This document shows, piece by piece, positions 2,988 through 25,766 of a stretch of 27,123 bases of DNA. The stretch is from IMG/VR virus record IMGVR_UViG_3300037483_000586, positions 1 through 27,123 of that record; one strand, written 5' to 3'. Under the pieces are notes generated by a model. The model saw only the letters and a list, made by a program, of their open reading frames with translations. It had not been told where the DNA came from and searched no databases. Source of the stretch: a virus (Duplodnaviria; Caudoviricetes). Position 1 is the first letter of the stretch. Every line of letters begins with the position of its first letter. A program made the translations under genes and the position numbers.

Positions 2988-4243
2988 ACATCCGCCAGCA
3001 CCTGCAGCGGCCGGCCGCCGCGCACGAATCCGGGGTGCTGCACCCGGTTTCGGCTCACGATCTCACCGTCGCGCGACGCATCTTCGTAGAGATCGTAGGC
3101 AAGCGTGAGCGCCGGCAGCGTGCCGGCGGGGGTGTAGTTCACCAGGCGGGCGAGGTCCGCGCCTCGCGCCGTCAGGTCGTTGACCATCGCCGTGCGCAGA
3201 TCGACCAGCGCGTTATAGGTGTCGTCGTCGCCGGTGGCGAGCAGCAGCGTGTCGAGCCGATCCGCCAGCTCGGTGCGCACCGATTGAGCGTCCTGGAACA
3301 CCGCGAAGTCCCTGTCGCTGGAGGCGCGCACCGCGGTGATCACGGCCGCGCGCTGCACGAGTGCCGTGATCGCCTGCTGATTATCGGCCTGCTGAATCCG
3401 GGAAGGCGTCGTCGCCGGCACGATCGGCACCGGGTACGGCGTCCCGGCCTCGCCGAAATCGAACAGCTTGCGCAGCATCTTCAGCCCGTTGAACGGATCG
3501 CGCGCGTCGATCCAGAGCAGCTCGACGGGGTTCTCCGCGAGGTCGCGCAGCTCGTCGATCTGCGAGAGCACCAGCGCGCCGAGCTGCGACGGCGTCTGCA
3601 TCAGCGTGTCCAGAGTGCCAGACAGCTCCGACAGGTTCGGCACGAATTCCGCCATCGCCTCCTTGATGGCCGGCACCAGGCGCGGCAGGCTGCCAATCAG
3701 CGTCGTCGCATTGCCCAGGATCTCCTTCGCGGCGTCGGCCACGAACGCCGGCTCGTCGGCGATGCTGAACTGGTCAGAGAACTCCGTCAGCACCGCCTCT
3801 TCGGCGGCATCGGCGCGCGAGTTCACGATCGAGGGCGTGTTCTCCGATGCGCTCGGGAACGTCACTTCGCCCGCCTCGACGAACGTGAGCGCGAACCGCG
3901 CCATGCCGCCCTCGGCGGTCTTTTCGCTGAGCTTGGATTCCGTCAGCGAGACGCGCAGCTCGCCCAGGTACGGATGCACCAGCACGCCGGGGCCGGCTTC
4001 TTCCAGCGCCGCGATCAGCGCGTCGCGGCGGGGCATGTAGTTAAAGCCGTTCGCCGCCGTGGCGAGCACGAACGCCTCCAGCTCGATCGTGCGCGCCTTG
4101 CGGCCCAGATCCTCGACGTACGGCTTGTCGCGCAGGGGGTACTCGTGCGTCACCGTGCGCCTGCCGAAGCCGCCGCTCGCTTCGTGGGTCAGGAACTCGA
4201 CGCCGCGGAACGATGCCTTGCGAAGCTGATCGCGCCAGCTCAT
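2984..4243 (-). CDS. Mu gpN-like DNA circularisation protein
   Basis: True start inferred at ATG 4243: MSWRDQLRKASFRGVEF...HEYPLRDKPYVEDLGR...GPGVLVHPYLG. C-terminus LPALTLAYDLYEDASR..EIV.RN..HPGFV. Confidence 0.92.
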   Translation of the reverse strand: MSWRDQLRKASFRGVEFLTHEASGGFGRRTVTHEYPLRDKPYVEDLGRKARTIELEAFVLATAANGFNYMPRRDALIAALEEAGPGVLVHPYLGELRVSLTESKLSEKTAEGGMARFALTFVEAGEVTFPSASENTPSIVNSRADAAEEAVLTEFSDQFSIADEPAFVADAAKEILGNATTLIGSLPRLVPAIKEAMAEFVPNLSELSGTLDTLMQTPSQLGALVLSQIDELRDLAENPVELLWIDARDPFNGLKMLRKLFDFGEAGTPYPVPIVPATTPSRIQQADNQQAITALVQRAAVITAVRASSDRDFAVFQDAQSVRTELADRLDTLLLATGDDDTYNALVDLRTAMVNDLTARGADLARLVNYTPAGTLPALTLAYDLYEDASRDGEIVSRNRVQHPGFVRGGRPLQVLADV

Positions 4244-4244
4244 C

Positions 4245-5918
4245 TCAGCTCCCCACGCCGAGCATGCCGGAATGGATGTCGAAATCGACGCCCGGGTTGT
4301 CGCTCTGCATCGACGCGACCTTCGCGCGGCCCTCCTGGTCGATCTTGATGTTGATCGTGCCGCCGACCTCGGCGCGGGCGGCGCGGGCGCCGCCGGGCAA
4401 AGCCGAGGGCGCGGCGCCGGCCGGCCGCCGCGCGTTCGCTGCCGCGATCGGCGCGACCGCCGGGGCCACAGCATTGGCCGCCGCGACGGCGGGCGCGACC
4501 GCGGGACGAATGGCGTTCGCCGCCGCCGCGAGCATACCGCCGGGCAGCGTCCACTTCTTCACCCATTCGGGCGTGATGCTGTCGAGCTTCAGGATCACGC
4601 CCTGGACGAACGCGAGCACCGCGTTAACCTTGCCCATGATGAACTCGATGCCGTCGGTCGCCGCCCCGACGATGCCGTCCCACAGGTTCGTGAAAAACTC
4701 GCTGATCGGCGCCCAGTTCCTGTAGACCAGGTAAGCGGCGCCGGCCAGGAGCGCGACCGCGCCCAGGAACCAGCCGATCGGCGTCGTCAGCAGAATGGCG
4801 CCGAACGTGATGATCGTCGGGATCATGGCCACGATCGCGGCGCCGAGCGCATAGATCGCGACCACCAGCTTCAGCGCGAGGACTCCGGCAAGCGCCGTGA
4901 TGACGTTGTCCCATCCACCCATCACCTGCGCGATCCTGTCCATCACCACAATCGCCGCGCCGACCGCGCCGACGATTCGGAGCGTGGTGTCCACGATCCG
5001 CGGCAGGTTGGTCATCAGGCGCTCGACGAACCCGGTTACGCGTGTGGCGATCAGCGCGCGGTTGGCCACGGCCCATGCCTTGATCTGCGCGGCTATCTTG
5101 TCGATCACCGGCAACGCCGCCGCCGTAATGACGCGCGCGACTCCGGTTAGCACAGCGCTCAGCTTGGTCAGCTCGTCGCCGGTGTCCTTGAACCGCTTGA
5201 CCATGTCGTCGCTCAGGACGGTGCCGGTGGCCTCCGCTTCGTCGCCCAGACGCCTGATCACGTCCGATCCCTGGGATAGCGTCTGAATCGTCTTCGCGCC
5301 GCCGTTGCCCATCAAGGTCATTCCCGACTCGATGCGAGCTGCCTGCGTGGGCAATTTCTCCATGCCGTCCGACAACCTCATGAGCAACGCGGCGGGATCG
5401 CCCAGGTTCTTCGTCACGAACTGGGCCGACATACCGACCCTCTCGAACGCTTTTTGCAGTTCCTTGTTGCCCCTGATGGCATCCTGGGCGTTCTTCTGCA
5501 GGAATCTCAGTGACGTGGCGGCATCCTCCGCGCTGGAGCCGTCCAGCGTGAGCGCGTAGCTGATGCGCTGGAACTCGCGCGCCGACATTCCGAGCATGTT
5601 GGCGGTGTCGCCGATCTTGCTGGCATCATCGATGACGCGCTTCATCGGGAACCACAGCGCCGCCACGCCGGCCGCGGCGACCAGGCCGGCGGCGCCGATG
5701 CCGCGCAGCGCGCTCGTGACGCCTCTGAACTTCTCGCCGACGACCTTGGCCTGGTCGGCGATCCTGGTCAGGCCGCTCTCGCGCACCAGCGAGTTGAACG
5801 ACGCTCGAACGCGGCGCACCGGCTCGGTCATCTTCTCAATGCGCTCGTTCACCTTGCGCACAGGCTCGGTGGCCTTGTCGATCGCCGCGATGATGAAGCT
5901 GAGTTTAAGCGCGCTCAT
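4245..5918 (-). CDS. Tail tape measure protein (557 aa)
   Basis: Ala-rich helical protein with N-terminal AIDKATEP and hydrophobic PIGWFLGAVALLAGAAYLVYRNW..I..FF segment; follows the tail chaperones. Confidence 0.9.
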   Translation of the reverse strand: MSALKLSFIIAAIDKATEPVRKVNERIEKMTEPVRRVRASFNSLVRESGLTRIADQAKVVGEKFRGVTSALRGIGAAGLVAAAGVAALWFPMKRVIDDASKIGDTANMLGMSAREFQRISYALTLDGSSAEDAATSLRFLQKNAQDAIRGNKELQKAFERVGMSAQFVTKNLGDPAALLMRLSDGMEKLPTQAARIESGMTLMGNGGAKTIQTLSQGSDVIRRLGDEAEATGTVLSDDMVKRFKDTGDELTKLSAVLTGVARVITAAALPVIDKIAAQIKAWAVANRALIATRVTGFVERLMTNLPRIVDTTLRIVGAVGAAIVVMDRIAQVMGGWDNVITALAGVLALKLVVAIYALGAAIVAMIPTIITFGAILLTTPIGWFLGAVALLAGAAYLVYRNWAPISEFFTNLWDGIVGAATDGIEFIMGKVNAVLAFVQGVILKLDSITPEWVKKWTLPGGMLAAAANAIRPAVAPAVAAANAVAPAVAPIAAANARRPAGAAPSALPGGARAARAEVGGTINIKIDQEGRAKVASMQSDNPGVDFDIHSGMLGVGS

Positions 5919-12194: not shown

Positions 12195-12225
12195 GGTCTC
12201 GTGGGTCCTCTGTGATCGGCGCGCG

Positions 12226-12723
12226 TTACTGCGCGGCCTGCTTCTTGACGTGGGTGACGGCGGCGGTGATCGAGATCTCGCGGCCCGCCTTGCGCTCGGT
12301 TTCCTGGAACTCGACCGCCTTGGCGGCGAGCGCCGTGGCGTCCAGCTCCGCGCCCGCCTCGACATCGCCCGCGCCGCGCTCCTTGAACTCGACGGCCTTG
12401 GGCAGCGTCTTGAGGAAGCCGCGCAGCCAGTCGATGCCCGGCGTGGCGATCTTCTTGTCACTTTCGCCGAACTCGATCTTCGTGTCGGCGGGCAGCGTCT
12501 CCATGAACGCGACCAGGCCGGACTTGTCTTTCGGCAGGATCTTGCCGGCGGCGACCAGGGCGTCGACCTCGGCGGTGATCGCCGTGCGGCGCGCGGCCGT
12601 CTCGTCGGACTTGATCTTCGCCTCGCGCTCGGCGAATGCGACATCCTTCTTGCGCTGCTCTTCGGCCTTCGCGTCCTGCTCGCGCTTCTGCGCGTCGAGC
12701 CGTTCCTTTTCCTTGGGGTCCAC
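12226..12723 (-). CDS. Internal in-frame scaffold protein (Mu gpZ-like)
   Basis: AGGAG-AGAAACGAC-GTG in frame at 12723, just before the charged coiled coil; Mu I/Z has the same nested arrangement. Confidence 0.6.
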   Translation of the reverse strand: MDPKEKERLDAQKREQDAKAEEQRKKDVAFAEREAKIKSDETAARRTAITAEVDALVAAGKILPKDKSGLVAFMETLPADTKIEFGESDKKIATPGIDWLRGFLKTLPKAVEFKERGAGDVEAGAELDATALAAKAVEFQETERKAGREISITAAVTHVKKQAAQ

Positions 12724-13335
12724 GTCGTTTCTCTCCTGGTAGCTGATGCCCGGTGCGGGCTCGGGGTTGTTCTTGACGGCTTCTTCCTGGATCGACGACA
12801 CCGCGTAATCGGGGATCACCTTGTCGGCTTCGTCCTTGCCGAACTTGCCGATCATCCAGTCGCGCAGCCCGCGGAACAGCATCGCGATGTCGCGCGTGGT
12901 CCAGTCCATGAACTCGATCACGTTCGCCTCGTCGTCGGCGAACTCGGCGGACTTCAGGCCCTTCACCGCGGGCGCCTGCGCGCCCAGGAAGCCGACGTGG
13001 CGCAGGTAGTAGCTGCCCGGCTTCGGGTTGTTCGGATCGTCGGGCGCGTACAGCGCGATGCTGATCTTCTTGAACGCGCCGCCGTTCACCAGCTCGGCGA
13101 ATTCCTGGTTGACCTGGTGCGGCTCGGCGACGAGCTTGCCGTCGACGACGCTCAACTTCTTCGCCCAACCGTAGGCGGGCGAGTCGCCCTTCGGGTGACC
13201 GACGACGAACGGCGCCTCGTGCAGCTCCGGCGAATACACATCGGCGATGGCTTGCACCATCGCCGGAGTGAACGGATAGGTTTTCCCGTTCGTGGCCGGA
13301 TGCCGGCCAGGCTTGAAGATCTCCTGAGCCTTCAC
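12226..13335 (-). CDS. Mu gpI-like prohead protease/scaffold
   Basis: EIFKPGRH, APFVVGHP, PAYGW, YYLRHVGFLGAQAPAVKGL; coiled-coil C-terminal half. Confidence 0.92.
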   Translation of the reverse strand: MKAQEIFKPGRHPATNGKTYPFTPAMVQAIADVYSPELHEAPFVVGHPKGDSPAYGWAKKLSVVDGKLVAEPHQVNQEFAELVNGGAFKKISIALYAPDDPNNPKPGSYYLRHVGFLGAQAPAVKGLKSAEFADDEANVIEFMDWTTRDIAMLFRGLRDWMIGKFGKDEADKVIPDYAVSSIQEEAVKNNPEPAPGISYQERNDVDPKEKERLDAQKREQDAKAEEQRKKDVAFAEREAKIKSDETAARRTAITAEVDALVAAGKILPKDKSGLVAFMETLPADTKIEFGESDKKIATPGIDWLRGFLKTLPKAVEFKERGAGDVEAGAELDATALAAKAVEFQETERKAGREISITAAVTHVKKQAAQ

Positions 13336-13397
13336 TTACACGCGCGCGTTCTTGGGCATGGTTGCTCGGTCTCTGAGATTGAAAATCAGCAGACCGC

Positions 13398-13440
13398 ATC
13401 CTGCGCGAGCGCTGGCGGGAAAGCCTTTAGCCTGGGTCAA
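13398..13440 (-). promoter_or_regulatory. Putative Mor/C-activated late promoter of the head-tail operon
   Basis: Dyad TTGACC-CA-GGCTAA (13427-13440), a 23-nt spacer, then -10-like CAGGAT (13398-13403). Same dyad and spacing as at 26866-26908. Confidence 0.7.
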
Positions 13441-13490
13441 AAGACGAGGTTAATCCGGGAGAGCCTTTCGGCTTTCCAGGATCGACCTCG
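13439..13490 (-). terminator. Long hairpin/terminator ending the accessory operon
   Basis: About 21-bp stem (3 mismatches, 1 GU) with a GAAA tetraloop, followed by UCUUUU on the minus strand. Confidence 0.6.
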
Positions 13491-13511
13491 ATGCGGCGGG
13501 GGAACTGCGGA

Positions 13512-13709
13512 CTACTTGACGAGCGCGGCCAGCTCCAGCTTCAGCAGGCGCAGCGCGCGGTCGGGCATGTTGCGCCAGGCTCTCGCAGCGCGCGGCAGCA
13601 GCCAGGCATTGAGCGTGTGGATCGAAACCCTGCCGCACAACTCGGCCGCGCGGGCGCGCGATAGGTTGTGCTGACGGATCAGCGTGCGGAGCTGCTCGGC
13701 ATTGCTCAA
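13512..13709 (-). CDS. Small HTH protein, Aca1-like (65 aa)
   Basis: TTG start overlapping the upstream stop (TTGA) with GGGAG SD. MSNAEQLRTLIRQHNLSRARAAELCGRVSIHTLNAWLLPRAARAWRNMPDRALRLLKLELAALVK has an XRE-type HTH. Confidence 0.75.
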   Translation of the reverse strand: MSNAEQLRTLIRQHNLSRARAAELCGRVSIHTLNAWLLPRAARAWRNMPDRALRLLKLELAALVK

Positions 13710-14086
13710 GCGGATCTCCCGGCGCGCCGTTGCTCGCGCTTCCACTGGCGCTCGCGCCTGGCCAGGTTCGCGGCCGACTGCGCCGCGAGATCGAAGGCAC
13801 CCTCCAAGCTCAACGCGAAGCCGCTGCGCCGGCCCTTCAGGCGCAGCTCGATCCGCGTCTCGCCCTTGTCCTGGTGGACGTGCATCACCACCGGCCGCGC
13901 GTCGCGGTGCGGCCGGTAGCCGCGGATCACAACGTGCCGCCGATCGGCGCGGCACTCGCTGCAGCGCGCGACGATCCGCGCGCCCTTGCCGATCGGCGCC
14001 AGGTCGAACGCCGCCGCGCCGTCGATCGACGTCTCGCCGGTGACCAGGTAGCGCCGGCCGGCGTGCACCACGTAGAGCGCGGTCAT
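13706..14086 (-). CDS. Hypothetical protein, 126 aa (accessory operon gene 5)
   Basis: ATGA-coupled to the upstream gene; basic, with CxxC. Confidence 0.65.
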   Translation of the reverse strand: MTALYVVHAGRRYLVTGETSIDGAAAFDLAPIGKGARIVARCSECRADRRHVVIRGYRPHRDARPVVMHVHQDKGETRIELRLKGRRSGFALSLEGAFDLAAQSAANLARRERQWKREQRRAGRSA

Positions 14087-14448
14087 GACAGCCACCGCTT
14101 GGCGCGCACTCCGCCCTCTGCATGCGCGAGCATCTCCAGCAACTTCTCGGTGCTAATTTCTGCCTTGGCCGCGAGAACCGACACCACCAGGTGCAGCGCG
14201 TCGCGCTTGACCGTCAGCTCCGTTTCGACCGAATCCCAGGTCTTGCCCTTTTCGAGATCGTCGGTGTCGATACCGTCGCATGCGTTGACGCACGAGACGA
14301 ATCGGCGTGCGGTCGCGGCGTCACCGCACGTCGCGATCCACGCGCCCTGGGCATCGACGACAGTGTCAGTGCGCCGCGCGCCGACCTTCAATGGCATCGC
14401 GTAAAGCGACGCCGGCATTGTTCCCCGTGAAACTTTTTCCGCGCCCAT
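14083..14448 (-). CDS. Hypothetical protein, 121 aa (accessory operon gene 4)
   Basis: TGATG-coupled; contains an ARRFVSCVNACDGI motif of the type seen in phage accessory proteins. Confidence 0.7.
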   Translation of the reverse strand: MGAEKVSRGTMPASLYAMPLKVGARRTDTVVDAQGAWIATCGDAATARRFVSCVNACDGIDTDDLEKGKTWDSVETELTVKRDALHLVVSVLAAKAEISTEKLLEMLAHAEGGVRAKRWLS

Positions 14449-14678
14449 CAGTGCGCTCCCTGGCGAAAAAGAAAGGTCAGCGTGCTGGACAGGTCGTCGT
14501 CGAGATTCAAGTGCTCGATCGCGTCGGGCGTCAACCCTTCCGCCATCAGGAGCTGCGCCTTGCCGGACGGCCGCAGATCGCGCAGCCGCGTGCCGATCGC
14601 TTCGACGTAGGCGCTCTCGTCGAAGGTGAGCGAGCGCGACGTGCGTGCCAGATCCTTGAGGATGTCGATGAGCCTCAT
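14448..14678 (-). CDS. Hypothetical protein, 76 aa (accessory operon gene 3)
   Basis: ATGA-coupled with GGAGG SD; MRLIDILKDLARTSRSLTFDE... Confidence 0.7.
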   Translation of the reverse strand: MRLIDILKDLARTSRSLTFDESAYVEAIGTRLRDLRPSGKAQLLMAEGLTPDAIEHLNLDDDLSSTLTFLFRQGAH

Positions 14679-14968
14679 GCCGACCTCCGCTTCGCTTCGT
14701 AGCGTTCGATGCGGCGAGCGAGGGCGGGCTTGCCGAGACATTCCTCGATCCTGGCCTGGAGGCGCACGAGCGCCGCGCTGCGCTCATCCCAACAGGTCGC
14801 CTCGGGCAGTCCAGGAACGAGCAGCGTCTTGCCGTCGTATGCGCGGCGCGCGAGACCCGCCACGGCTTCGCGCAGCTTCTTCGCCGGGCCGCTGGTGATC
14901 GGCAAGGTGTTGCGCTCGACTTTGCGGCCGAAACTGATGACGCCGTTGGCTTGAGCGAGTGCGATCAT
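14675..14968 (-). CDS. Conserved Mu-like small protein, 97 aa (family often labelled host nuclease inhibitor; accessory operon gene 2)
   Basis: ATGA-coupled; motif A.ANGVISFG...LPI..G..KKLR..V...ARRAYDGKTLLVPGLPEA recognised from memory. Confidence 0.7.
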   Translation of the reverse strand: MIALAQANGVISFGRKVERNTLPITSGPAKKLREAVAGLARRAYDGKTLLVPGLPEATCWDERSAALVRLQARIEECLGKPALARRIERYEAKRRSA

Positions 14969-15411
14969 GACGCTCTCCAGACTTGTTGCATCAGCTCGCG
15001 GGCGTCCTTGATCAGCGCGGCCGGCGCGATCGACTCGTCGCTCCAGTCGTCGATGCCGAGGAAGCGATCGATCAGCTCGGCCGCGCCCTTCGCGACGTCG
15101 GCCGCGCGCGCCATCTTCATCAGTTCGACCGTGGCTTCCTGCTTTCCCTTCGGCGTGCCGTCCTGGAGTACCGCGATGAAAATCTGCGCGGCCTGGCACC
15201 AGGTCATGCGCATGTCGGTCGCGTGCGTCGTTCGTTCCTCGTGCTTCGACGGATCGATCAGCGTTCCGACGCGAGGCATCTCACCATTGACCTCGGCAGG
15301 CAAAACCCAGAAGGCCCGCCCGCCTGCCGTCTTTATCAGCGCGGTCCTGGTGCCGTCTGGCTTCTTCGTCGAGCCGTACACCTCGATGATGGTGTTGGGA
15401 TTCGTTTTCAT
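14965..15411 (-). CDS. Hypothetical protein, 148 aa (accessory operon gene 1)
   Basis: AAGGAG SD before ATG 15411; first gene after the 15462-15490 promoter. Confidence 0.8.
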   Translation of the reverse strand: MKTNPNTIIEVYGSTKKPDGTRTALIKTAGGRAFWVLPAEVNGEMPRVGTLIDPSKHEERTTHATDMRMTWCQAAQIFIAVLQDGTPKGKQEATVELMKMARAADVAKGAAELIDRFLGIDDWSDESIAPAALIKDARELMQQVWRAS

Positions 15412-15440
15412 GTCCGTCTCCTTGTATGTGCTCGCCGCAT

Positions 15441-15501
15441 GGTGCAGCAAGCTGCACCATCAGACTACATACAATGTACGCATGGTGCAAGTAGCTGCAC
15501 C
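15441..15501. promoter_or_regulatory. Two operators GGTGCA-N6-TGCACC (15441-15458, 15484-15501)
   Basis: Perfect 6-bp arms; they overlap the predicted start site and the -35; the same motif recurs at 16560-16577. Confidence 0.8.
15462..15490 (-). promoter_or_regulatory. Sigma70 promoter of the leftward accessory operon
   Basis: TTGCAC-17 nt-TAGTCT on the minus strand; AT-rich patch in a GC-rich background. Confidence 0.75.
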
Positions 15502-15710
15502 ACCAGGCCGGCAAGCAGGCCGGAAGGGGGGTCTAGGCCGGGATCGGGGCCGGAAGGCCGGTTTGGGGATGCCGGGGGTGCCCGGATCGGGCGGCACCCC
15601 GTTCAAATTGGCGCCAGCCTGTTCAAAAAATCCGGCGTGGGTGGAGCTGGCGGGCCTGTATGTAATCGCGCAACCTGCGCGATCCTGGCCGGTCGGCCCG
15701 ATTGGCGGTC

Positions 15711-15971
15711 TCAGTCCATGTCGTCGGTCGGCGGGCGAGCCGGCTTTCCGGCTACCCGGCGCAGCAACCGAATCAGTCTCGTGAAGGTCGTCTCGTAGTC
15801 GTGCTCGATCAGGATAACGGTGCTGTTGTTGATGTTGACGACGTTGTGGTGACCGCGCAGTCGTGTAGGCGGCCGGGCGTCGAATGTGCCCGTTGCCTTC
15901 CTCTCATCATCGATGGCATCGGCAAGAATGCGGCGCACCCTCGCCTTGACGTCATCGTCTTTGGATGCCAT
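15711..15971 (-). CDS. Hypothetical protein, 86 aa, downstream of the repressor
   Basis: ATG with AAGGGGG SD; co-oriented with the repressor. Confidence 0.55.
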   Translation of the reverse strand: MASKDDDVKARVRRILADAIDDERKATGTFDARPPTRLRGHHNVVNINNSTVILIEHDYETTFTRLIRLLRRVAGKPARPPTDDMD

Positions 15972-16039
15972 AGCGCGCCCCCTTCAGAGCGTGATGCTCT
16001 CGGCGATCGCCATTATTTTTTTAAATGACCGTCTGCCGA

Positions 16040-16151
16040 GAAACTGAACGTGAAGTCCTACGCAGCCAGCGTGACGAGATTTAGCACAGTCGCGCGAAAC
16101 TGAACGTGAATTCCTACGCAGCCAGCTTGACGAGGTTTAACACGGTCGCGC
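16040..16151. repeat. 56-bp imperfect tandem duplication of the repressor 3' end
   Basis: 16040-16095 vs 16096-16151, 5 mismatches. Confidence 0.95.
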
Positions 16152-16542
16152 GATCCACCGCGCCTTTGCCGCGCGCATCTTCGTAGAGCGCGGTCACCAG
16201 CATCGCCTTCTTTGCCGCTGGCAGCCGGATCTTCCGGTCGACCAGGATCTCTTCCACCGCTTCCATCACGGCGGCGAGCAGCTCATTGTAGACGGCAGGC
16301 TGTTGCAATTTGTGCGCGGCCTCCGGCGCCGTCTTGCGACCGGTGATGATGTATCCGACGTCGGCGCCGGCCTCCGACCACAGGTACAGCGTGACGGCGT
16401 TGGGCGTGGGCTCGCCTTCCTTCTCCCATTCGATCATCGAGCGCTTGGAGGCATTGCCGAGTTGAGCGAACGCCTCGACCGTGAAGCCGAGCCGCTTCCG
16501 CTCTTCCCTGAGCCGTGTCCCGATGGATGAAGTTTTCTGCAC
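16114..16542 (-). CDS. Phage repressor (XRE HTH), about 142 aa
   Basis: SIGTRLREERKRLGFT.EAFA.LG.ASKRSMIEWEK...P....L......GADV.YIITG; divergent from the ner-like gene. The GTG 16542 start is inferred and has no SD. Confidence 0.88.
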   Translation of the reverse strand: MQKTSSIGTRLREERKRLGFTVEAFAQLGNASKRSMIEWEKEGEPTPNAVTLYLWSEAGADVGYIITGRKTAPEAAHKLQQPAVYNELLAAVMEAVEEILVDRKIRLPAAKKAMLVTALYEDARGKGAVDRATVLNLVKLAA

Positions 16543-16579
16543 CGTGCCAGTTGACAGGCGGTGCAGATTTCTGCACCAT
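16526..16579 (+). promoter_or_regulatory. Early promoter with operators
   Basis: TTGACA (16551-16556)-17 nt-CACCAT. Operator GGTGCA-GATTTC-TGCACC at 16560-16577 and degenerate GATGAA-GTTTTC-TGCACC at 16526-16543. Confidence 0.75.
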
Positions 16580-16610
16580 ACCCAGACATTCACAGAAACC
16601 AACAGGCTAC

Positions 16611-16835
16611 ATGGCGCAGGCACGCAAAGTAAAGACACCCCCCATCAAGACTGGCCGGGAGGTCGAGGCTGAGTTCGAGCGCACCGGCACCTCCGTATCG
16701 GAATGGGCGCGCGAGCACGACTTCAACCCGAACCTGGTGTTCGAGGTGCTGAAGGGCCGGGTGAAGGGCAAACGCGGCAAGGCGCACAACATCGCCGTGC
16801 TGCTCGGCATGAAGCACGGCGAGATCCGCGCATGA
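16611..16835 (+). CDS. Ner-like DNA-binding protein (BcepMu gp16 family)
   Basis: GTSVSEWAREHDF.PNLV.EVL.GR.K.KRGKAHNIAVLLGMK; first gene of the early operon. Confidence 0.88.
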   Translation: MAQARKVKTPPIKTGREVEAEFERTGTSVSEWAREHDFNPNLVFEVLKGRVKGKRGKAHNIAVLLGMKHGEIRA

Positions 16836-19162
16836 GCGCGGGCGCGAATCCGGCCGGCGCGGAGCCGGCGAACGACGATGCCTTCCTTCCTGCGGGCGAC
16901 CTGGTCGGGTTGCCCGGCCTGCCGGCGACGCCGAGCGGCGCGATCCGCTGGCTGCGCAAGAGCAACATCACATCGAGAGCGGTTCCCGGCCGCGGCGGTC
17001 CCGGCGGCAAGCGCGTCGAGTACGCGGTCGCCGAGCTGCCCGCCGCCACGCGCGCCGCGCTCGCCGCGCGCGCGATCAACGCAATCAACGGCCCGCGCGC
17101 GTCGATCGCGCCGGTCGAGCCGGCCGCGGTGAAGGCGGGCGCGGTCGAAGGCGCGAAGCTCGCGCTGCGCGAAGGTCTCACCGAGCGCGCGGCGGAAGCG
17201 GCGCGCCTCAACTCATTGAAGGGCAGCACCGCGCTGCGCGGAAGATCGCGCGAGCGCATGGACGCGAAGCTGGAGATCCTGCGCGCGCTGGCGCTCTACC
17301 AGGAAGCGGGCAGTTTGTCGGTGCAGGCGAGCGAGGTTCATTTTGCCGCCGCCTACGCGAAGCGCGAGATCGAGGTCAGCGACGCGGCGCGGTCGATGAT
17401 CCCCGACGTCGGCGCATCGACGCTCGCCAACTGGCGGCGCCTCATCCGCACCAGGGGCATCACCGCGCTCGCGGGCTCCTACGGCAACCGCAAGGGCGAC
17501 GGCACGATCGACCGGCAGCCGCAACTGCGCGACTTCATCATCGGCATGCTGGTGCGCTCACCGCACGCGCGCGCCACGCACGTCAGGGACGGCATCCGCG
17601 CGCGCTTCGGCGCCACGGCCTCGATCGTCGAGCCCTCGCTGCGCCGGCTGGAGAAGTGGCTCGCCGACTGGCGCATTGATAACGCGCAGACGATCACGGC
17701 GCTCGCCAACCCCGACGCCTGGAAGGGCAAGTACATGGTCGCCTTCGGTTCGCAGTCCGAAGGCGTCGTGCGTTTGAACCAGCGTTGGGAGCTGGACGGC
17801 ACGCCCGGCGACGTGATGCTGACCGACGGCCGGCACATGGTGATCGGCGGCATCGATGTCTATTCGCGGCGCCCCCGCATCCTCGTGAGCAAGACCGCGA
17901 AGGCGACCGCCGTCGCCGCGCTCAACCGCAAGATGCTGCTCGACTTCGGCCCGCCCGAGGAAGTCAAGACCGACAACGGCTCGGACTACAAGTCGAAGCA
18001 CATGATCCGGGTGTTCAGCGCGCTCGACATCGGGCAGACCTTCTGCCCGCCGTTCCAGCCCTGGCACAAGCCGCACATCGAGCGGTTCTTCGGCACCTTC
18101 ACGCGCGACCTGGTCGAGCTGCTCGACGGCTTCATCGGCCACAACGTCGCCGAGCGCTCCGCGATCGAGGCGCGCCAGTCGTTCGCCGAGCGCCTGATGA
18201 CGCGCGGCGAAGCGGTCGATATCACGATGAGCGCCGCCGAGTTCCAGAAATTCTGCGACGATTGGATCGACGCGGTCTACATGCACCGGCCACACGACGG
18301 CCTGGACGGCAAGACGCCGTTCGAGGTCGCGGCGGCGTGGCCGCACCCGGTGCGCCGCATCGAGGACGAACGCGCGCTCGACGTGCTGCTCGGCGAGGGC
18401 GTGTGGCGCACGGCGCAGAAGAAGGGCATCGAGATCGACGGCGCCTGGTTCATCGCGCCCGAGCTGGAACGGCACGTCGGCGAAAAGGTGCTGTGCCTGC
18501 AGCTCCCGGATCTGGGCCGCGTCGTCGTCCAGGGTGGGCCGGATCTCGCCTTCGTCTGCATCGCCGAATGCCCGGAGCGCACCGGCATCGACCGCAAGGA
18601 AGTCGCCGCGGTCGCGCGCGAACGGCAGAAGGCGCGCGTGCAGGAAGAGCGCCGCGCCCTCAAGGCGATCGGCAAACGCGAGCGCACCGAAAACATCGTC
18701 GACGAGATCCTGGCCGACCGGGCGCGCAAGGCGGCGCGCCTCGGCGCGTTCCCCAGGCCCGCGATCGTTCACGACTCGGCCGGCTTGTCCGCCGCGGCCG
18801 ACGCGGTCGCCGAGCTGCACCGGCCGGCGCGCAGCTCCGCCGAGCTGATGAGCGAAGACCAGGCGCGCGCCGAGCGCGCGCGCATCGAGCAGGACATCGC
18901 GGCCGGCGCCGACAACGAACTCGCGCGACGCCGGATCGAAAGCGGCGCCGAAGAGCTGCAGCCGGTGTTCGAGAACCGTTACGAGCGCGTGGTCTGGATC
19001 GCGCGGCGCGCGAAGTTCCGCGCGCTCACCGGAGAAGAGACGGAATTCCTCGCCGCCTACCGGCGCGAGCAGCCGACGTCCTACAGGCAGTTGATGCAGA
19101 TGGTCGACGAGCAGTCGGCGCCGCATGAGAAGGAAGCGCCGGAGCGATCCGGCGCGGCGTAG
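16832..19162 (+). CDS. MuA-like DDE transposase (776 aa)
   Basis: ATGA-coupled start; N-terminal Mu-type DNA-binding domain (LPGLP...GRGG...EYAV.ELP); catalytic WELDGT, KTDNGSDY, KPHIERFF. Confidence 0.96.
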   Translation: MSAGANPAGAEPANDDAFLPAGDLVGLPGLPATPSGAIRWLRKSNITSRAVPGRGGPGGKRVEYAVAELPAATRAALAARAINAINGPRASIAPVEPAAVKAGAVEGAKLALREGLTERAAEAARLNSLKGSTALRGRSRERMDAKLEILRALALYQEAGSLSVQASEVHFAAAYAKREIEVSDAARSMIPDVGASTLANWRRLIRTRGITALAGSYGNRKGDGTIDRQPQLRDFIIGMLVRSPHARATHVRDGIRARFGATASIVEPSLRRLEKWLADWRIDNAQTITALANPDAWKGKYMVAFGSQSEGVVRLNQRWELDGTPGDVMLTDGRHMVIGGIDVYSRRPRILVSKTAKATAVAALNRKMLLDFGPPEEVKTDNGSDYKSKHMIRVFSALDIGQTFCPPFQPWHKPHIERFFGTFTRDLVELLDGFIGHNVAERSAIEARQSFAERLMTRGEAVDITMSAAEFQKFCDDWIDAVYMHRPHDGLDGKTPFEVAAAWPHPVRRIEDERALDVLLGEGVWRTAQKKGIEIDGAWFIAPELERHVGEKVLCLQLPDLGRVVVQGGPDLAFVCIAECPERTGIDRKEVAAVARERQKARVQEERRALKAIGKRERTENIVDEILADRARKAARLGAFPRPAIVHDSAGLSAAADAVAELHRPARSSAELMSEDQARAERARIEQDIAAGADNELARRRIESGAEELQPVFENRYERVVWIARRAKFRALTGEETEFLAAYRREQPTSYRQLMQMVDEQSAPHEKEAPERSGAA

Positions 19163-21910: not shown

Positions 21911-22147
21911 ATGGCCGTGCTCTCCATCAACGCGCAGAACCGCATGTGCCACGGCAAGAACCGCTATCCGGCCGAGATCGCCGCGCTGATTGCGGCGCAA
22001 CGCTACGCCGAGCTGCGCAAGGTGCGGCTGCGCGTCTACGCCTGCCCGGTCTGCGACGGCTGGCACATCACCAAGCAGTTCGGCAGCGAATTGAAGAAGG
22101 GTACGTCCCGGCCGCGCCCGGCCCAACGCCAGGCGCGCCGCCCTTGA
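21911..22147 (+). CDS. Small Zn-binding-like protein, 78 aa
   Basis: C.GK.RY ... RVYACPVCDGWHIT. Confidence 0.72.
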   Translation: MAVLSINAQNRMCHGKNRYPAEIAALIAAQRYAELRKVRLRVYACPVCDGWHITKQFGSELKKGTSRPRPAQRQARRP

Positions 22148-22719
22148 TGACGATCGCCAAGGAGAAAGCAGACGTGAACGCAAGAACCAACGATGTCCAA
22201 ATCACCGAGATCGACCAGCTCGCCCGCCAGTACGCCGACGCGCAGATGGCGCTCGACGGCCTCACCAATGACCTCAGAACGAAGATCGACCAGGTCGTGC
22301 GTAACGCCTGGCCAGAGCTGCGCCGCGCGACCACGCGCGCGGCCGAGCGTTACGAGGCGCTCTACGCGCTGGTCAGCGAATCGCGCGCGGTCTTCGACAA
22401 GCCCAAGACCAAGATCCTGCACGGCGTGCGCGTCGGCTTCCGCAAGTCCAAAGACACCGTCCAGGTGCTGAACACCGAGAACACCGTCGCGCTGATCAAG
22501 AAGCACCTGGCAGACCAGGCCGAGGTGCTGATCTCGACGACCGAGAAGCCGGTGCAATCCGCGATCGAGCAGCTCGGCGACGGCGACCTGAAGCTGATCG
22601 GCTGCAAGCGCGTCGCCGGCAGCGACGAGCCGGTCGCCGCCATCGCCGAGACCGAGATCGACAAGGTCGTGCAGGCGCTGATGAAGAGTGCGATCGAGAA
22701 AGCCGAGGCCGCGTCATGA
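22147..22719 (+). CDS. gam: Gam-like host-nuclease inhibitor (DNA end protection)
   Basis: N-terminal coiled coil then F.KPKT.ILHGVRVGFRK and LI.TTEKP; Mu early-region position. Alternative start GTG 22174 with AAGGAG SD. Confidence 0.65.
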   Translation: MTIAKEKADVNARTNDVQITEIDQLARQYADAQMALDGLTNDLRTKIDQVVRNAWPELRRATTRAAERYEALYALVSESRAVFDKPKTKILHGVRVGFRKSKDTVQVLNTENTVALIKKHLADQAEVLISTTEKPVQSAIEQLGDGDLKLIGCKRVAGSDEPVAAIAETEIDKVVQALMKSAIEKAEAAS

Positions 22720-23288: not shown

Positions 23289-23923
23289 CCCTCTACGACC
23301 GAGCGCCTGCACCGGGAGCTGACGGCATGAACGGCCCGCACATCTTCACCGTCACCTTCGACGACGCGATCATTTCCGAGTGCGGGCAGTACCGCTACCG
23401 CCTGACGCGGCGCATCACGCCGCATGATCTCGGCCACTTCGGCTGCGACGGCCATTATCGCTACACGCCAGAGCGGATCGCGAACTTCATCATGCTCAAC
23501 CCGAGCACCGCGGACTGGACGACGAACGATCCGACCATCCGGCGTTGCATCGGCTACGCGATGGCGTGGGGCTGCGCTGCGCTTGTCGTGTCCAACCTGT
23601 TCGGCTTCCGCGCCACCGACCCGCGCTACATCGCGATCGTTCGAGATCCGGTCGGCCCACTGAACAACGACTACGTGATCGGCGCCGCGTGCCGCGCGCA
23701 CGAGAGCGGCGGCGTGGTCGTCGCGGCCTGGGGCGTGAACGGCTGGCACCGCGACCAGGACCGCCATGTGATGTCGCTGCTCACGCAGACGCTCGGCATC
23801 CCGGTCAAGTGCATGGGCACGACGGCCGAAGGCTTTCCGCGCCATCCGCTCTACCTCACCAGGAAAACGCCGCTCGCGCCCTACGCCGGCCGGCCGCTCA
23901 TGGAGGTCAAGCCGCGTGGATAG
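23285..23923 (+). CDS. DUF1643 family protein
   Basis: S.CG.YRY.L.R, FIMLNPSTAD...DPTIRRC, NLF.FRATDP, VAAWG, PRHPLY. Confidence 0.9.
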   Translation: MTLYDRAPAPGADGMNGPHIFTVTFDDAIISECGQYRYRLTRRITPHDLGHFGCDGHYRYTPERIANFIMLNPSTADWTTNDPTIRRCIGYAMAWGCAALVVSNLFGFRATDPRYIAIVRDPVGPLNNDYVIGAACRAHESGGVVVAAWGVNGWHRDQDRHVMSLLTQTLGIPVKCMGTTAEGFPRHPLYLTRKTPLAPYAGRPLMEVKPRG

Positions 23924-24017
23924 GTTCCTCGAGACGCTGCCGCTCTGGCTCGGCCTGGCCGGCGCGCTGCTGTTCGTCGCGTCGATGTCCATTCAACTCT
24001 GGACGGCCTACCGCTGA
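23916..24017 (+). CDS. Small single-pass membrane protein, 33 aa
   Basis: GGAGG SD, GTG start, MDRFLETLPLWLGLAGALLFVASMSIQLWTAYR*, TGATG-coupled to the next gene. Confidence 0.6.
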   Translation: MDRFLETLPLWLGLAGALLFVASMSIQLWTAYR

Positions 24018-24475
24018 TGGACCGCGCTCCCATCGAGCAGATCCAGCTCGGGAATATCTACGCGATATTTCCCGAGTTCCGGGCGTTCAAGCACCGGGTG
24101 CCGTTCCTCACGCCGAAGCAACAGCACATGCTGATCCTGCGCATGGCGCTGAACAGCATCCGCGTTGGCGAATGCATCTGCTGGTGCGCCCATTGCAACA
24201 ACGACGGCTACCCGAAGACCAACTTCAACGTCTTCGGGTCGCCGCGCAGCCTGTACGTCCACCAGCTCGCGCTGAGCATGAAGACGGGGCGCGATCCGCG
24301 CCATTGGGAGGAAGCCGGCCACGGCTGCGACATGCCGGGCTGCATCAACCCCAAGCACCTGGCGTTCGAGCGCATCGTCAGCAACCGCCGCCGCTCGGCC
24401 GACAACACCAACCGCAAGAAAGCGCGCGGGCTGCGCAGGCGCCGCCGCGAGCACGAGGAAAGGGCATCGGCATGA
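24017..24475 (+). CDS. HNH / His-Me finger endonuclease-like protein
   Basis: C..W......DGY, VHQLA, H.CD.P.CINP.HL....N. Confidence 0.82.
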   Translation: MDRAPIEQIQLGNIYAIFPEFRAFKHRVPFLTPKQQHMLILRMALNSIRVGECICWCAHCNNDGYPKTNFNVFGSPRSLYVHQLALSMKTGRDPRHWEEAGHGCDMPGCINPKHLAFERIVSNRRRSADNTNRKKARGLRRRRREHEERASA

Positions 24476-24825
24476 GCTGCGCCCTCCGATACCTGGGCGT
24501 GGCCACGCGGCGCGCAATCCTTAGCGGCGATGAACCTGCGTGGCTGCTGGCTCACCCGCGTCGCAGCTACGTTCGCCAGGGTTACCTGTCGTGCCCCGAG
24601 TGGGTCGATCGCACTGAGATGCGATGGATCGACTGGTGCCGCCGTTCCTGGTCGAAGGCGACGGGCGTCGAGCATGTGCTCGACCACATCCAACCGTTGA
24701 ACCATCCGCGCGTGAACGGTCTTACGGTGCCCTGGAATTTTCGCCTGGTGCCGCGCATGACGAACGCGACGAAGGGAAACACCTGGTGCGACACCCAGGG
24801 CGAAATCTTTGGAGATCGCGCATGA
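24472..24825 (+). CDS. HNH endonuclease-like protein, 117 aa
   Basis: ATGA-coupled; P.WVD, HVLDHIQPL....V.GL.VPWN......N..KGN. Confidence 0.8.
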   Translation: MSCALRYLGVATRRAILSGDEPAWLLAHPRRSYVRQGYLSCPEWVDRTEMRWIDWCRRSWSKATGVEHVLDHIQPLNHPRVNGLTVPWNFRLVPRMTNATKGNTWCDTQGEIFGDRA

Positions 24826-25766
24826 GCGACGGAAGCAAGATCGAGTGGCTGCACGACGGCGTGAAGAAGGCGCTGACCTGGAACCCGACCACCGGCTGCA
24901 CCAAGGTGAGCGCCGGCTGCAAGCACTGCTACGCGAAGCGCGAGTGGGTACGCCTCTCGGCCAACCCGAGGTCGATCTACTACGGCCGCAAATTCGAGGA
25001 TGTCGCCATGCATCCCCAGCGACTGATGGTGCCGCTGCTGCTGACGAAGCCGCGCCGGATCTTCGTGGACAGCATGTCCGATCTGTTCCATGACGACGTG
25101 AAAGAATTGTTCATCGTGGCGGTGCTCGGCGTCGCCGCGATCTCCAGCCATCACACGTTCATCATCCTCTCGAAGCGCGCGGAGCGGATGCGATTGGTGC
25201 TCTCCTATCGGAATCAGGGAGCGCGTTCGTGGATGGTGAGCGCACTCTTGCATTACGGCCTCGTCGGCTACATCGACAAGCTGCCCGAGACGATCACCTG
25301 GCCGCTGCCGAACGTGCAGCTCGGCGTCAGCGTCGAGAGCCGCGAGCACCTGGATCGCGTCGACGCGCTGCGCGCGACGCCGGCCGCGGTGCGCGTGATC
25401 TCGGCCGAGCCGCTGCTCGAGGATCTCGGCGGGTTCAACCTGCAGGACATCCACCAGGTGTATGCCGGCGGCGAGACCGGGCCGAAGTCTCGGCCGTCGC
25501 ACCCGGACTGGTTCCGCTCGCTGCGCGACGAATGCTCGCGCCAGGGCGTGGCGTTCTTTTTCAAGCAGTGGGGCGACTGGTCTCCGGCCTATGCCTGGGC
25601 GCGTGCGGTGAATGTCGATCCGGCTACCGGAGCCGTCGACGATCCGAACTCGCGCATGGGCAAGAAGGGACTTCCGGTTCAGGGCGTCAACTCCATGTTC
25701 CGGGTCGGAAAGAAGAACGCCGGCCGTACGCTCGACGGCAAGCTGCACAACGAGCTGGTGGCCTGA
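24822..25766 (+). CDS. Phage Gp37/Gp68 family protein (DUF5131)
   Basis: SKIEW, TWNP.TGCTKVS.GC.HCYA, IFVDSMSDLFH, S.EPLLEDL, GGE.G...RP.HPDW.RSLRD.C, FFKQWG, AGR.LDG. Confidence 0.93.
   Translation: MSDGSKIEWLHDGVKKALTWNPTTGCTKVSAGCKHCYAKREWVRLSANPRSIYYGRKFEDVAMHPQRLMVPLLLTKPRRIFVDSMSDLFHDDVKELFIVAVLGVAAISSHHTFIILSKRAERMRLVLSYRNQGARSWMVSALLHYGLVGYIDKLPETITWPLPNVQLGVSVESREHLDRVDALRATPAAVRVISAEPLLEDLGGFNLQDIHQVYAGGETGPKSRPSHPDWFRSLRDECSRQGVAFFFKQWGDWSPAYAWARAVNVDPATGAVDDPNSRMGKKGLPVQGVNSMFRVGKKNAGRTLDGKLHNELVA

Follow-up and report, generated by a model that had tools for sequence, protein, structure and literature searches.

What kind of operon is the run of six small genes that precedes the head protease gene in the phage record IMGVR_UViG_3300037483_000586, and what controls it? 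The window analysed here is the whole of this virus record (27,123 bases), which represents part of a contractile-tailed Mu-like phage. The genes form a cassette of six minus-strand open reading frames (ORFs) from 15411 to 13512 (Table 1), of which the last encodes a helix-turn-helix (HTH) protein and is followed by the protease gene. The initial annotation had read this arrangement as a candidate operon of anti-defence or anti-CRISPR (Acr) genes ending in a regulator similar to Aca1, an Acr-associated (Aca) protein. We hypothesize, at a probability of about 60%, that the cassette is an accessory early operon with an acr-aca-like build and that its promoter is likely held by two regulators, namely its own Aca1/Aca3-related HTH protein (gene 6) and the phage immunity repressor c.

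Table 1. Positions of the cassette genes, predicted control sites, and flanking elements in the window.
Feature	Positions	Strand	Basis or remark
Gene 6, 65 amino acids (aa), HTH, TTG start	13512..13709	-	Profile comparisons; Aca1/Aca3 superfamily, predicted autorepressor
Gene 5, 126 aa, basic	13706..14086	-	Before HTH in all three cassettes seen; in L003 in early operon
Gene 4, 121 aa	14083..14448	-	Weak phage relatives; N-terminal part 37% to L001 counterpart
Gene 3, 76 aa, isoelectric point (pI) 5.2	14448..14678	-	No relative found (Pfam, NCBIfam, PHROGs, tblastn vs GenBank phages best E 0.9)
Gene 2, 97 aa, basic	14675..14968	-	PHROG 1518 (E 2e-13); in D3112-like early regions its relatives come after gam; alpha/beta model of high confidence
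Gene 1, 148 aa	14965..15411	-	Residues 65-106 weak match to PHROG 22670; C-terminal part common to L001 and L003, N-terminal part exchanged
Predicted 10-bp 5' leader hairpin, ending ~20 nucleotides (nt) before first start codon	15430..15452	-	Weak, z -1.8
Perfect 18-bp palindrome at predicted transcription start, predicted immunity-repressor operator	15441..15458		Motif recurrence
Cassette promoter, sigma70-like	15462..15490	-	-35 TTGCAC 15490-15485, 17-nt spacer, TG-extended -10 TAGTCT 15467-15462
Inverted repeat with 3-nt centre abutting -10 box, predicted gene 6 operator	15468..15480		Comparison with D3112 acr promoter; Aca1 IR2 register
18-bp palindrome overlapping -35 box, predicted immunity-repressor operator	15484..15501		Motif recurrence
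Immunity repressor gene c (HTH), predicted binder of 18-bp palindrome	16114..16542	-	Library matches and comparison with relatives
Degenerate 18-bp palindrome copy over start of c	16526..16543		Motif scan
18-bp palindrome in spacer of predicted early promoter (-35 at 16551-16556) before ner	16560..16577		Motif scan
ner-like gene, first in early operon, then transposase A, B	16611..16835	+	Library matches, gene calling
Head maturation protease/scaffold gene (flank)	12226..13335	-	PHROG 976
Hairpin before protease gene, kept with or without cassette, likely part of late control region	13455..13480		Present in L150

The six ORFs are joined by overlaps, in order ATGA, ATGA, TGATG, ATGA, and TTGA, as first described, and an independent gene caller recovered all of them with a different start choice for genes 4 and 5. 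For gene 1, a good ribosome site is present. The sigma70 promoter proposed initially was also found; it was missed by the stricter promoter scan, and its boxes were taken from the promoter-core test. In the acr promoter of phage D3112, an inverted repeat takes up the final 13 bases of the 17-nt spacer. Both in the window and in a related phage, L001, a repeat occupies the same 13 bases. The D3112/JBD30-like acr-aca1 promoters and the cassette promoter have in common a repeat that abuts the -10 box and has a 3-nt centre. The inner AC-N3-GT is retained, but the outer bases differ from those of the Aca1 half-site GGCAC, a change that is predicted by the altered residues of gene 6 relative to Aca1. 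The leader hairpins were weak among the promoters compared (z -0.6 to -2.4).

The kinship of gene 6 with the Aca proteins was evaluated by profile comparisons. At E 0.001, gene 6 matched 109 sequences of the set of 50% representatives, its own among them, and an alignment of 81 short rows (79 matches, P0001, and P0002) was made, with the long and fused matches left out. The resulting profile matched 48 PDB sequences, mostly generic HTH proteins over shorter stretches. The best full-length match was Aca3 (9vt3, E 5e-5, positions 6-55, the tail after the HTH included), although two designed repeat proteins and Pli0006 scored as well, and Aca1 (7c0g) was matched with E 0.016 over positions 8-49. 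The hhalign comparison of the profile with D3112 Aca1 gave a probability of 94% over 48 columns with 25% identity. As a single sequence, gene 6 fails to find Aca3; no BLASTP alignment with D3112 Aca1, no phmmer match to Aca1, and no tblastn match among GenBank phages were obtained. Its single-sequence model was poor, with a predicted local distance difference test (pLDDT) score of 67, and Foldseek found nothing at E 0.001, while the ESM Atlas placed gene 6 near unnamed HTH clusters.

The structure of Aca1 with DNA describes half-sites GGCAC around a 3-nt centre, in which Arg44, Val45, Arg47, and Tyr48 read the outer bases, Arg59 reads the inner C:G pair, and Ser42 and Tyr49 contact the backbone (PMC8633003). 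Ser42, Tyr49, and Arg59 correspond to S29, W36 (aromatic), and R46 of gene 6, which are conserved in 63 rows, 81 rows (W or Y), and 74 rows, respectively, of the 81 aligned. All four residues that read the outer bases are changed, to H31, T32, N34, and A35. Gene 6 is accordingly placed by profile as a distant relative in the Aca1/Aca3 superfamily and outside Aca1 itself. The Aca1-like HTH of the initial annotation thus stands as a homologue by profile with a repeat in the Aca1 register, but the identification as Aca1 was rejected on the missing BLASTP alignment, the changed base-reading residues, and the half-site other than GGCAC. Gene 6 shows the general Aca trait of a small HTH protein at the operon end, and the predicted operator shows another, an inverted repeat within the core promoter (PMC9410906). 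In contrast to Aca3, no acrIIC-type neighbours were seen around the family members.

The predicted gene 6 operator was searched for at other loci of the family. A degenerate DNA scan for the family HTH turned up 21 loci in viral contigs, 15 of them true, and 115 in genomes, of which 2 were true and the other 113 served as controls. The repeat GTAC-N3-GTAC, with at most one mismatch, was present in a promoter-like core in the window and at 3 of 18 family loci (L001, L013, and L109), compared with 0 of 129 promoter cores at the 113 control loci. The motif was guessed from the window and L001 and widened after L109, and L013 was met in an unbiased palindrome scan. L013 is a RadC-containing operon with the repeat in the same register, and in L109 the repeat is shifted by 4 nt. 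One phage group with a different recognition helix has CTTCC-N3-GGAAG at the -35 box in all eight of its loci, for which there was no control and which are not independent. The loci of this group (L009, L011, L015, L022, L023, L027, L029, and L055) are operons of small genes with the family HTH and a DUF932-like gene, and several of their promoters also have a second conserved spacer motif in common. A third repeat with a 3-nt centre occurs at two promoters of L156. The metagenome scan with close HTH relatives yielded two loci, one being the L001 phage again and the other false, and L008 was likewise false.

A second element, overlooked by the initial annotation, is an 18-bp palindrome common to the cassette promoter and the repressor/ner switch. 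The motif GGTGCAG-N4-CTGCACC has three matches in the window with at most one mismatch against 0.02 expected; allowing two mismatches brings the number to four, all of them at the cassette promoter or the switch (in 40 shuffles, the mean was 0.28 and the maximum 2). A different palindrome, GTATTC-N4-GAATAC, is present exactly two times within 15,077 bases of the L001 phage, once ahead of ner and once over the -10 box of the cassette. The window palindrome is absent from L001 and the L001 palindrome from the window, and L003 has a third palindrome, before ner only. A shared 12-mer test was dropped as insensitive, since it missed the known L001 site, and was replaced by a spaced palindrome test of 16 switch-by-promoter pairings. 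Among the 12 pairings with a short switch, a recurring site was found only for the window with itself and for L001 with itself. None of the 19 switch palindromes of D3112 recurs in any of the four promoters, its own acr promoter included, which sets D3112 apart from the window. The 570-nt guanine-cytosine (GC)-rich switch region of L109 gave noise at 1-2 mismatches with all four promoters, and dual control is therefore unsupported for L109. By comparing the window with L001, the repressors are 35% identical but the Ner proteins 63%, although the palindromes differ between the two phages; c is thus the likelier binder of the 18-bp palindrome, rather than Ner.

We propose the following course of events. 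On entry into a naive cell no repressor would be present, so the cassette promoter would fire at once and the five small cargo proteins (genes 1-5) would be made. Gene 6, the last gene and the one with a TTG start, would then probably accumulate, dimerise on the repeat beside the -10 box, and damp the burst. In a lysogen, c would probably occupy both of the 18-bp sites flanking the promoter, which would stay shut until induction frees the cassette and the early promoter together. The cargo would most likely act in host takeover or counter-defence during the first period after entry. In a further, only tentative form of the proposal, the cassette promoter would adopt an operator that fits the immunity repressor present in its phage, and silence in the lysogen would leave the host defences intact for the prophage, with a burst at infection or induction that the Aca-like repressor would subsequently trim. 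If the cassette and the immunity switch do have an operator in common that changes in step with the repressor, this would show one way in which a temperate phage could confine counter-defence to lytic entry.

Known acr-aca operons are described as autoregulated. No report of an immunity-repressor operator in an acr-aca promoter was found in a literature search that had most subscription papers outside its scope. In the passages considered, PMC13551039 describes Aca control of further anti-defence genes and mentions no regulation by a phage immunity repressor, and PMC9936078 contains nothing on acr loci. The gene 6 family could already be included in the AcaFinder predicted Aca sets or in the motif tables of PMC13551039.

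The cassette is accessory, as relatives lack it or carry other cargo. L001 has a cassette at the same place, with gene 6 84-86% and gene 5 89% identical; gene 1 is 71% identical over residues 63-148 only, the likeness of gene 4 is confined to its N-terminal part, and genes 2 and 3 have no match there. This phage was fetched repeatedly (L002, L004, L006, L007, L145, and L151) and is counted as one. In L014, whose record begins inside the cassette, gene 5, the HTH gene, and the protease gene follow in order. The cassette is absent before the protease gene in three of four protease loci (L150, L152, and L153, of which L152 and L153 are identical). No family HTH was found in the 19-kb record of L003. 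Its ORF at 1293-1838, after ner, encodes a 181-aa protein that by eye resembles tandem Ner-like repeats.

The cargo proteins were compared with family, phage, and structure collections. No family of Pfam or NCBIfam was matched by genes 1-5, whereas Pfam detected AcrF2 and AcrF31 in D3112 as a positive control. The PDB sequence searches covered genes 2, 5, and 6, and genes 2 and 5 had no sequence match there at E < 0.1; gene 5 also had no tblastn match among GenBank phages and no usable match in the ESM Atlas. Structure modelling of the cargo covered gene 2, for which a confident model (pLDDT 93) had a best VIA Z of 4.5 and no Foldseek match in PDB or BFVD, which does not establish a new fold. 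Gene 1 has PHROG 22670 in common with an ORF of 56 aa in an unrelated phage, L024, where it lies upstream of the family HTH, while tblastn gave no link between the two ORFs.

Gene 2 does belong to the family labelled host nuclease inhibitor, as suggested initially, but the label itself was most likely carried over from a fusion with Gam. Among the matches listed, gene 2 matched 74 phage records, 65 of them of Pseudomonas. Its counterpart in D3112 is the tail of a 266-aa ORF named gam; JBD93 has the counterpart as a gene of its own (92 aa), which follows one of 172 aa, both labelled host nuclease inhibitor. The D3112 gam (L005, 7567-8367) joins Gam to the PHROG 1518 protein via a stretch that looks frameshifted, which is the likely source of the label. 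The window has its own gam at 22147-22719, and gene 2 is without the PF07352 domain; it matches the part fused behind Gam and shares only the label of PHROG 1518 with Mu Gam. A role of gene 2 as a nuclease inhibitor was rejected on these grounds, and the tracing of the label removes a misleading annotation.

RadC and DUF932 are anti-restriction companions, and both were matched among the neighbours of gene 6 relatives, together with DUF6011, PF25735, and a DEAD-type helicase. Helicases are reported to occur in Aca2 operons (PMC13551039). The first ORF of L024 (PF25735) had no PDB match. L109, a Burkholderiales Mu-like prophage, has the order gpF, gpG, an 89-aa ORF of pI 4.4, HTH, a 103-aa ORF, and protease, which is the classical acr slot. 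The acidic ORF (4139-4408, minus strand) lies with its own promoter before the family HTH and has no Pfam, NCBIfam, or PDB match. On a Magnetospirillum plasmid (L154, 3156-3380), a 74-aa ORF of pI 4.1 is ahead of a 228-aa protein with the family HTH. These two acidic ORFs are better Acr candidates than the cargo of the window. With 109 relatives at 50% clustering and a readable code that links helix to operator, the HTH family would give a new handle on such candidates. On the tentative reading of gene 6 as a new Aca family, its members and their GTAC-type operator would newly mark anti-defence genes of uncultured phages.

Several points weigh against the proposed dual control or the anti-defence role. 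The binding and repression of the cassette promoter by gene 6 and c are predictions, and the covariation of repressor and operator rests on two phages. The GTAC repeat is missing from the promoter core of 15 of the 18 family loci, of which eight have another helix, L010 and L014 have no upstream DNA, L018 has its site outside the core, and L024/L026 and L025/L028 have none; the test is also partly post hoc, because the motif was partly defined after L109 had been seen. The HTH superfamily is wider than Aca, since models of the PRK11891 N-terminus and of the VC1465 family were also matched. None of the six cassette proteins matched the known Acr models of Pfam, PHROGs, and NCBIfam, in line with the first impression. 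The link to known anti-CRISPRs expected from the homologue neighbourhoods was not found: no known acr gene was among 55 neighbours in NCBIfam or among 29 and 27 neighbours in Pfam, a small sample of ~12 distinct contexts. Matches to known anti-defence families were likewise absent from the cargo proteins and from these neighbours. The GC content of the cargo (0.63-0.73) lies around that of the window (about 0.67), unlike the acr locus of D3112 (RGP G), which has low GC relative to its genome (PMC4378225). Genes 2 and 5 are basic and only gene 3 of the cargo is acidic, and relatives of the C-terminal part of gene 1, of gene 2, and of gene 5 are found in ordinary early operons elsewhere.

These last points bear on a rival explanation that keeps the same regulation but takes the cargo for a relocated block of early genes of the semi-essential kind, acting as helpers in host metabolism, replication, or exclusion and having no part in counter-defence; we consider this explanation rather unlikely. 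Relatives of gene 5 (80%) and of the gene 1 domain (45%) lie between the ner-like genes and the transposase gene in L003, relatives of gene 2 follow gam in D3112-like phages, the cargo GC matches the genome, and control by the immunity repressor is a property of any early lytic operon. The Mu-like semi-essential early region likewise consists of short coupled accessory genes under predicted repressor control, and three of the cargo families are found there elsewhere. However, the cassette of the window is a separate divergent transcription unit with its own predicted autorepressor, and an added Aca-type autorepressor, variable cargo, and the slot before the protease gene are marks of acr loci; the family HTH of L109 even follows an acidic ORF in the classical slot. 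An anti-defence function of the cassette is plausible, and the chance that at least one cargo protein blocks a defence system is about even. The fullest form of the proposal, with a new Aca family, a counter-defence operon wired into the lysis/lysogeny switch, and five new anti-defence proteins silent in the lysogen, is put forward only tentatively.

A true acr-aca operon, in which one or more of genes 1-5 inhibit CRISPR-Cas, would explain the position before the protease gene, the HTH gene in last place, the repeat in the Aca1 register, and a leader hairpin near the location of the RNA motif of Aca1; to our knowledge, new Acr families as a rule resemble nothing known. On the other hand, no known acr lies beside any family member examined, the profiles of genes 2 and 5 lack PDB matches, and the cargo is mostly not acidic. 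This explanation is quite improbable, and it is improbable that one of the cargo proteins is an anti-CRISPR. The remaining rival concerns the 18-bp palindrome, which Ner might bind instead of c, so that the cassette would be turned off later in lytic growth and perhaps be on in lysogens. Mu Ner binds in the switch region, and the site of the window lies within the promoter that drives ner. Nevertheless, each of three phages has a different palindrome in that spacer, although their Ner proteins, at 63-66% identity, have an almost identical HTH; the repressors of the three are 35-54% identical. This makes binding by Ner unlikely and leaves c as the favoured binder.

The setting of the cassette agrees with D3112/JBD30-like acr-aca1 loci in part. 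Small genes followed by an HTH gene lie directly before the protease gene, as does the accessory block of D3112 (RGP G), but the slot is between c and the protease gene, beside the repressor and not after gpG; only L109 has the family in the gpG-protease slot, and none of the cargo is a known Acr. As no terminase, portal, gpF, or gpG was recognised within the window, its gene order differs from the gpG-acr-aca1-protease order of D3112. On the minus strand, the genes for the protease, head, and tail are directed leftward, and ner, transposase A, transposase B, gam, gemA, and mor run rightward; the cassette is flanked on its other side by an 86-aa ORF and c. The region 12200-17200 is covered by three abutting contigs of run X1, a possible source of the window, with 0 differing letters.

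The hairpin at 13455-13480, described initially as terminal to the cassette, was rejected as its terminator, since it was not scored by the terminator scan and is also found ahead of the protease gene in L150, where the cassette is absent and gpG points away; it may instead be a late control element. Another hairpin, of 10 bp with a T-rich tail, is inside the start of the protease gene (13242-13265) and has a terminator-like score on the coding strand. Two tandem 56-nt copies, 89% identical, lie at 16037-16148, one being the 3' end of the repressor gene, so that the gene end appears duplicated. The 86-aa ORF after c (15711-15971) has a start that by eye resembles a longer ORF after the L003 repressor gene and is absent in L001. 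The head and tail genes diverge from the early operon rather than following it, and in L150 (729-1366) gpG lies next to the protease gene in inverted orientation, which suggests a rearrangement of the Mu-like genome plan. The early region of the window (23327-25766) contains a DUF5131 gene, an ORF similar to His-Me finger endonucleases, and an uncharacterised 198-aa ORF.

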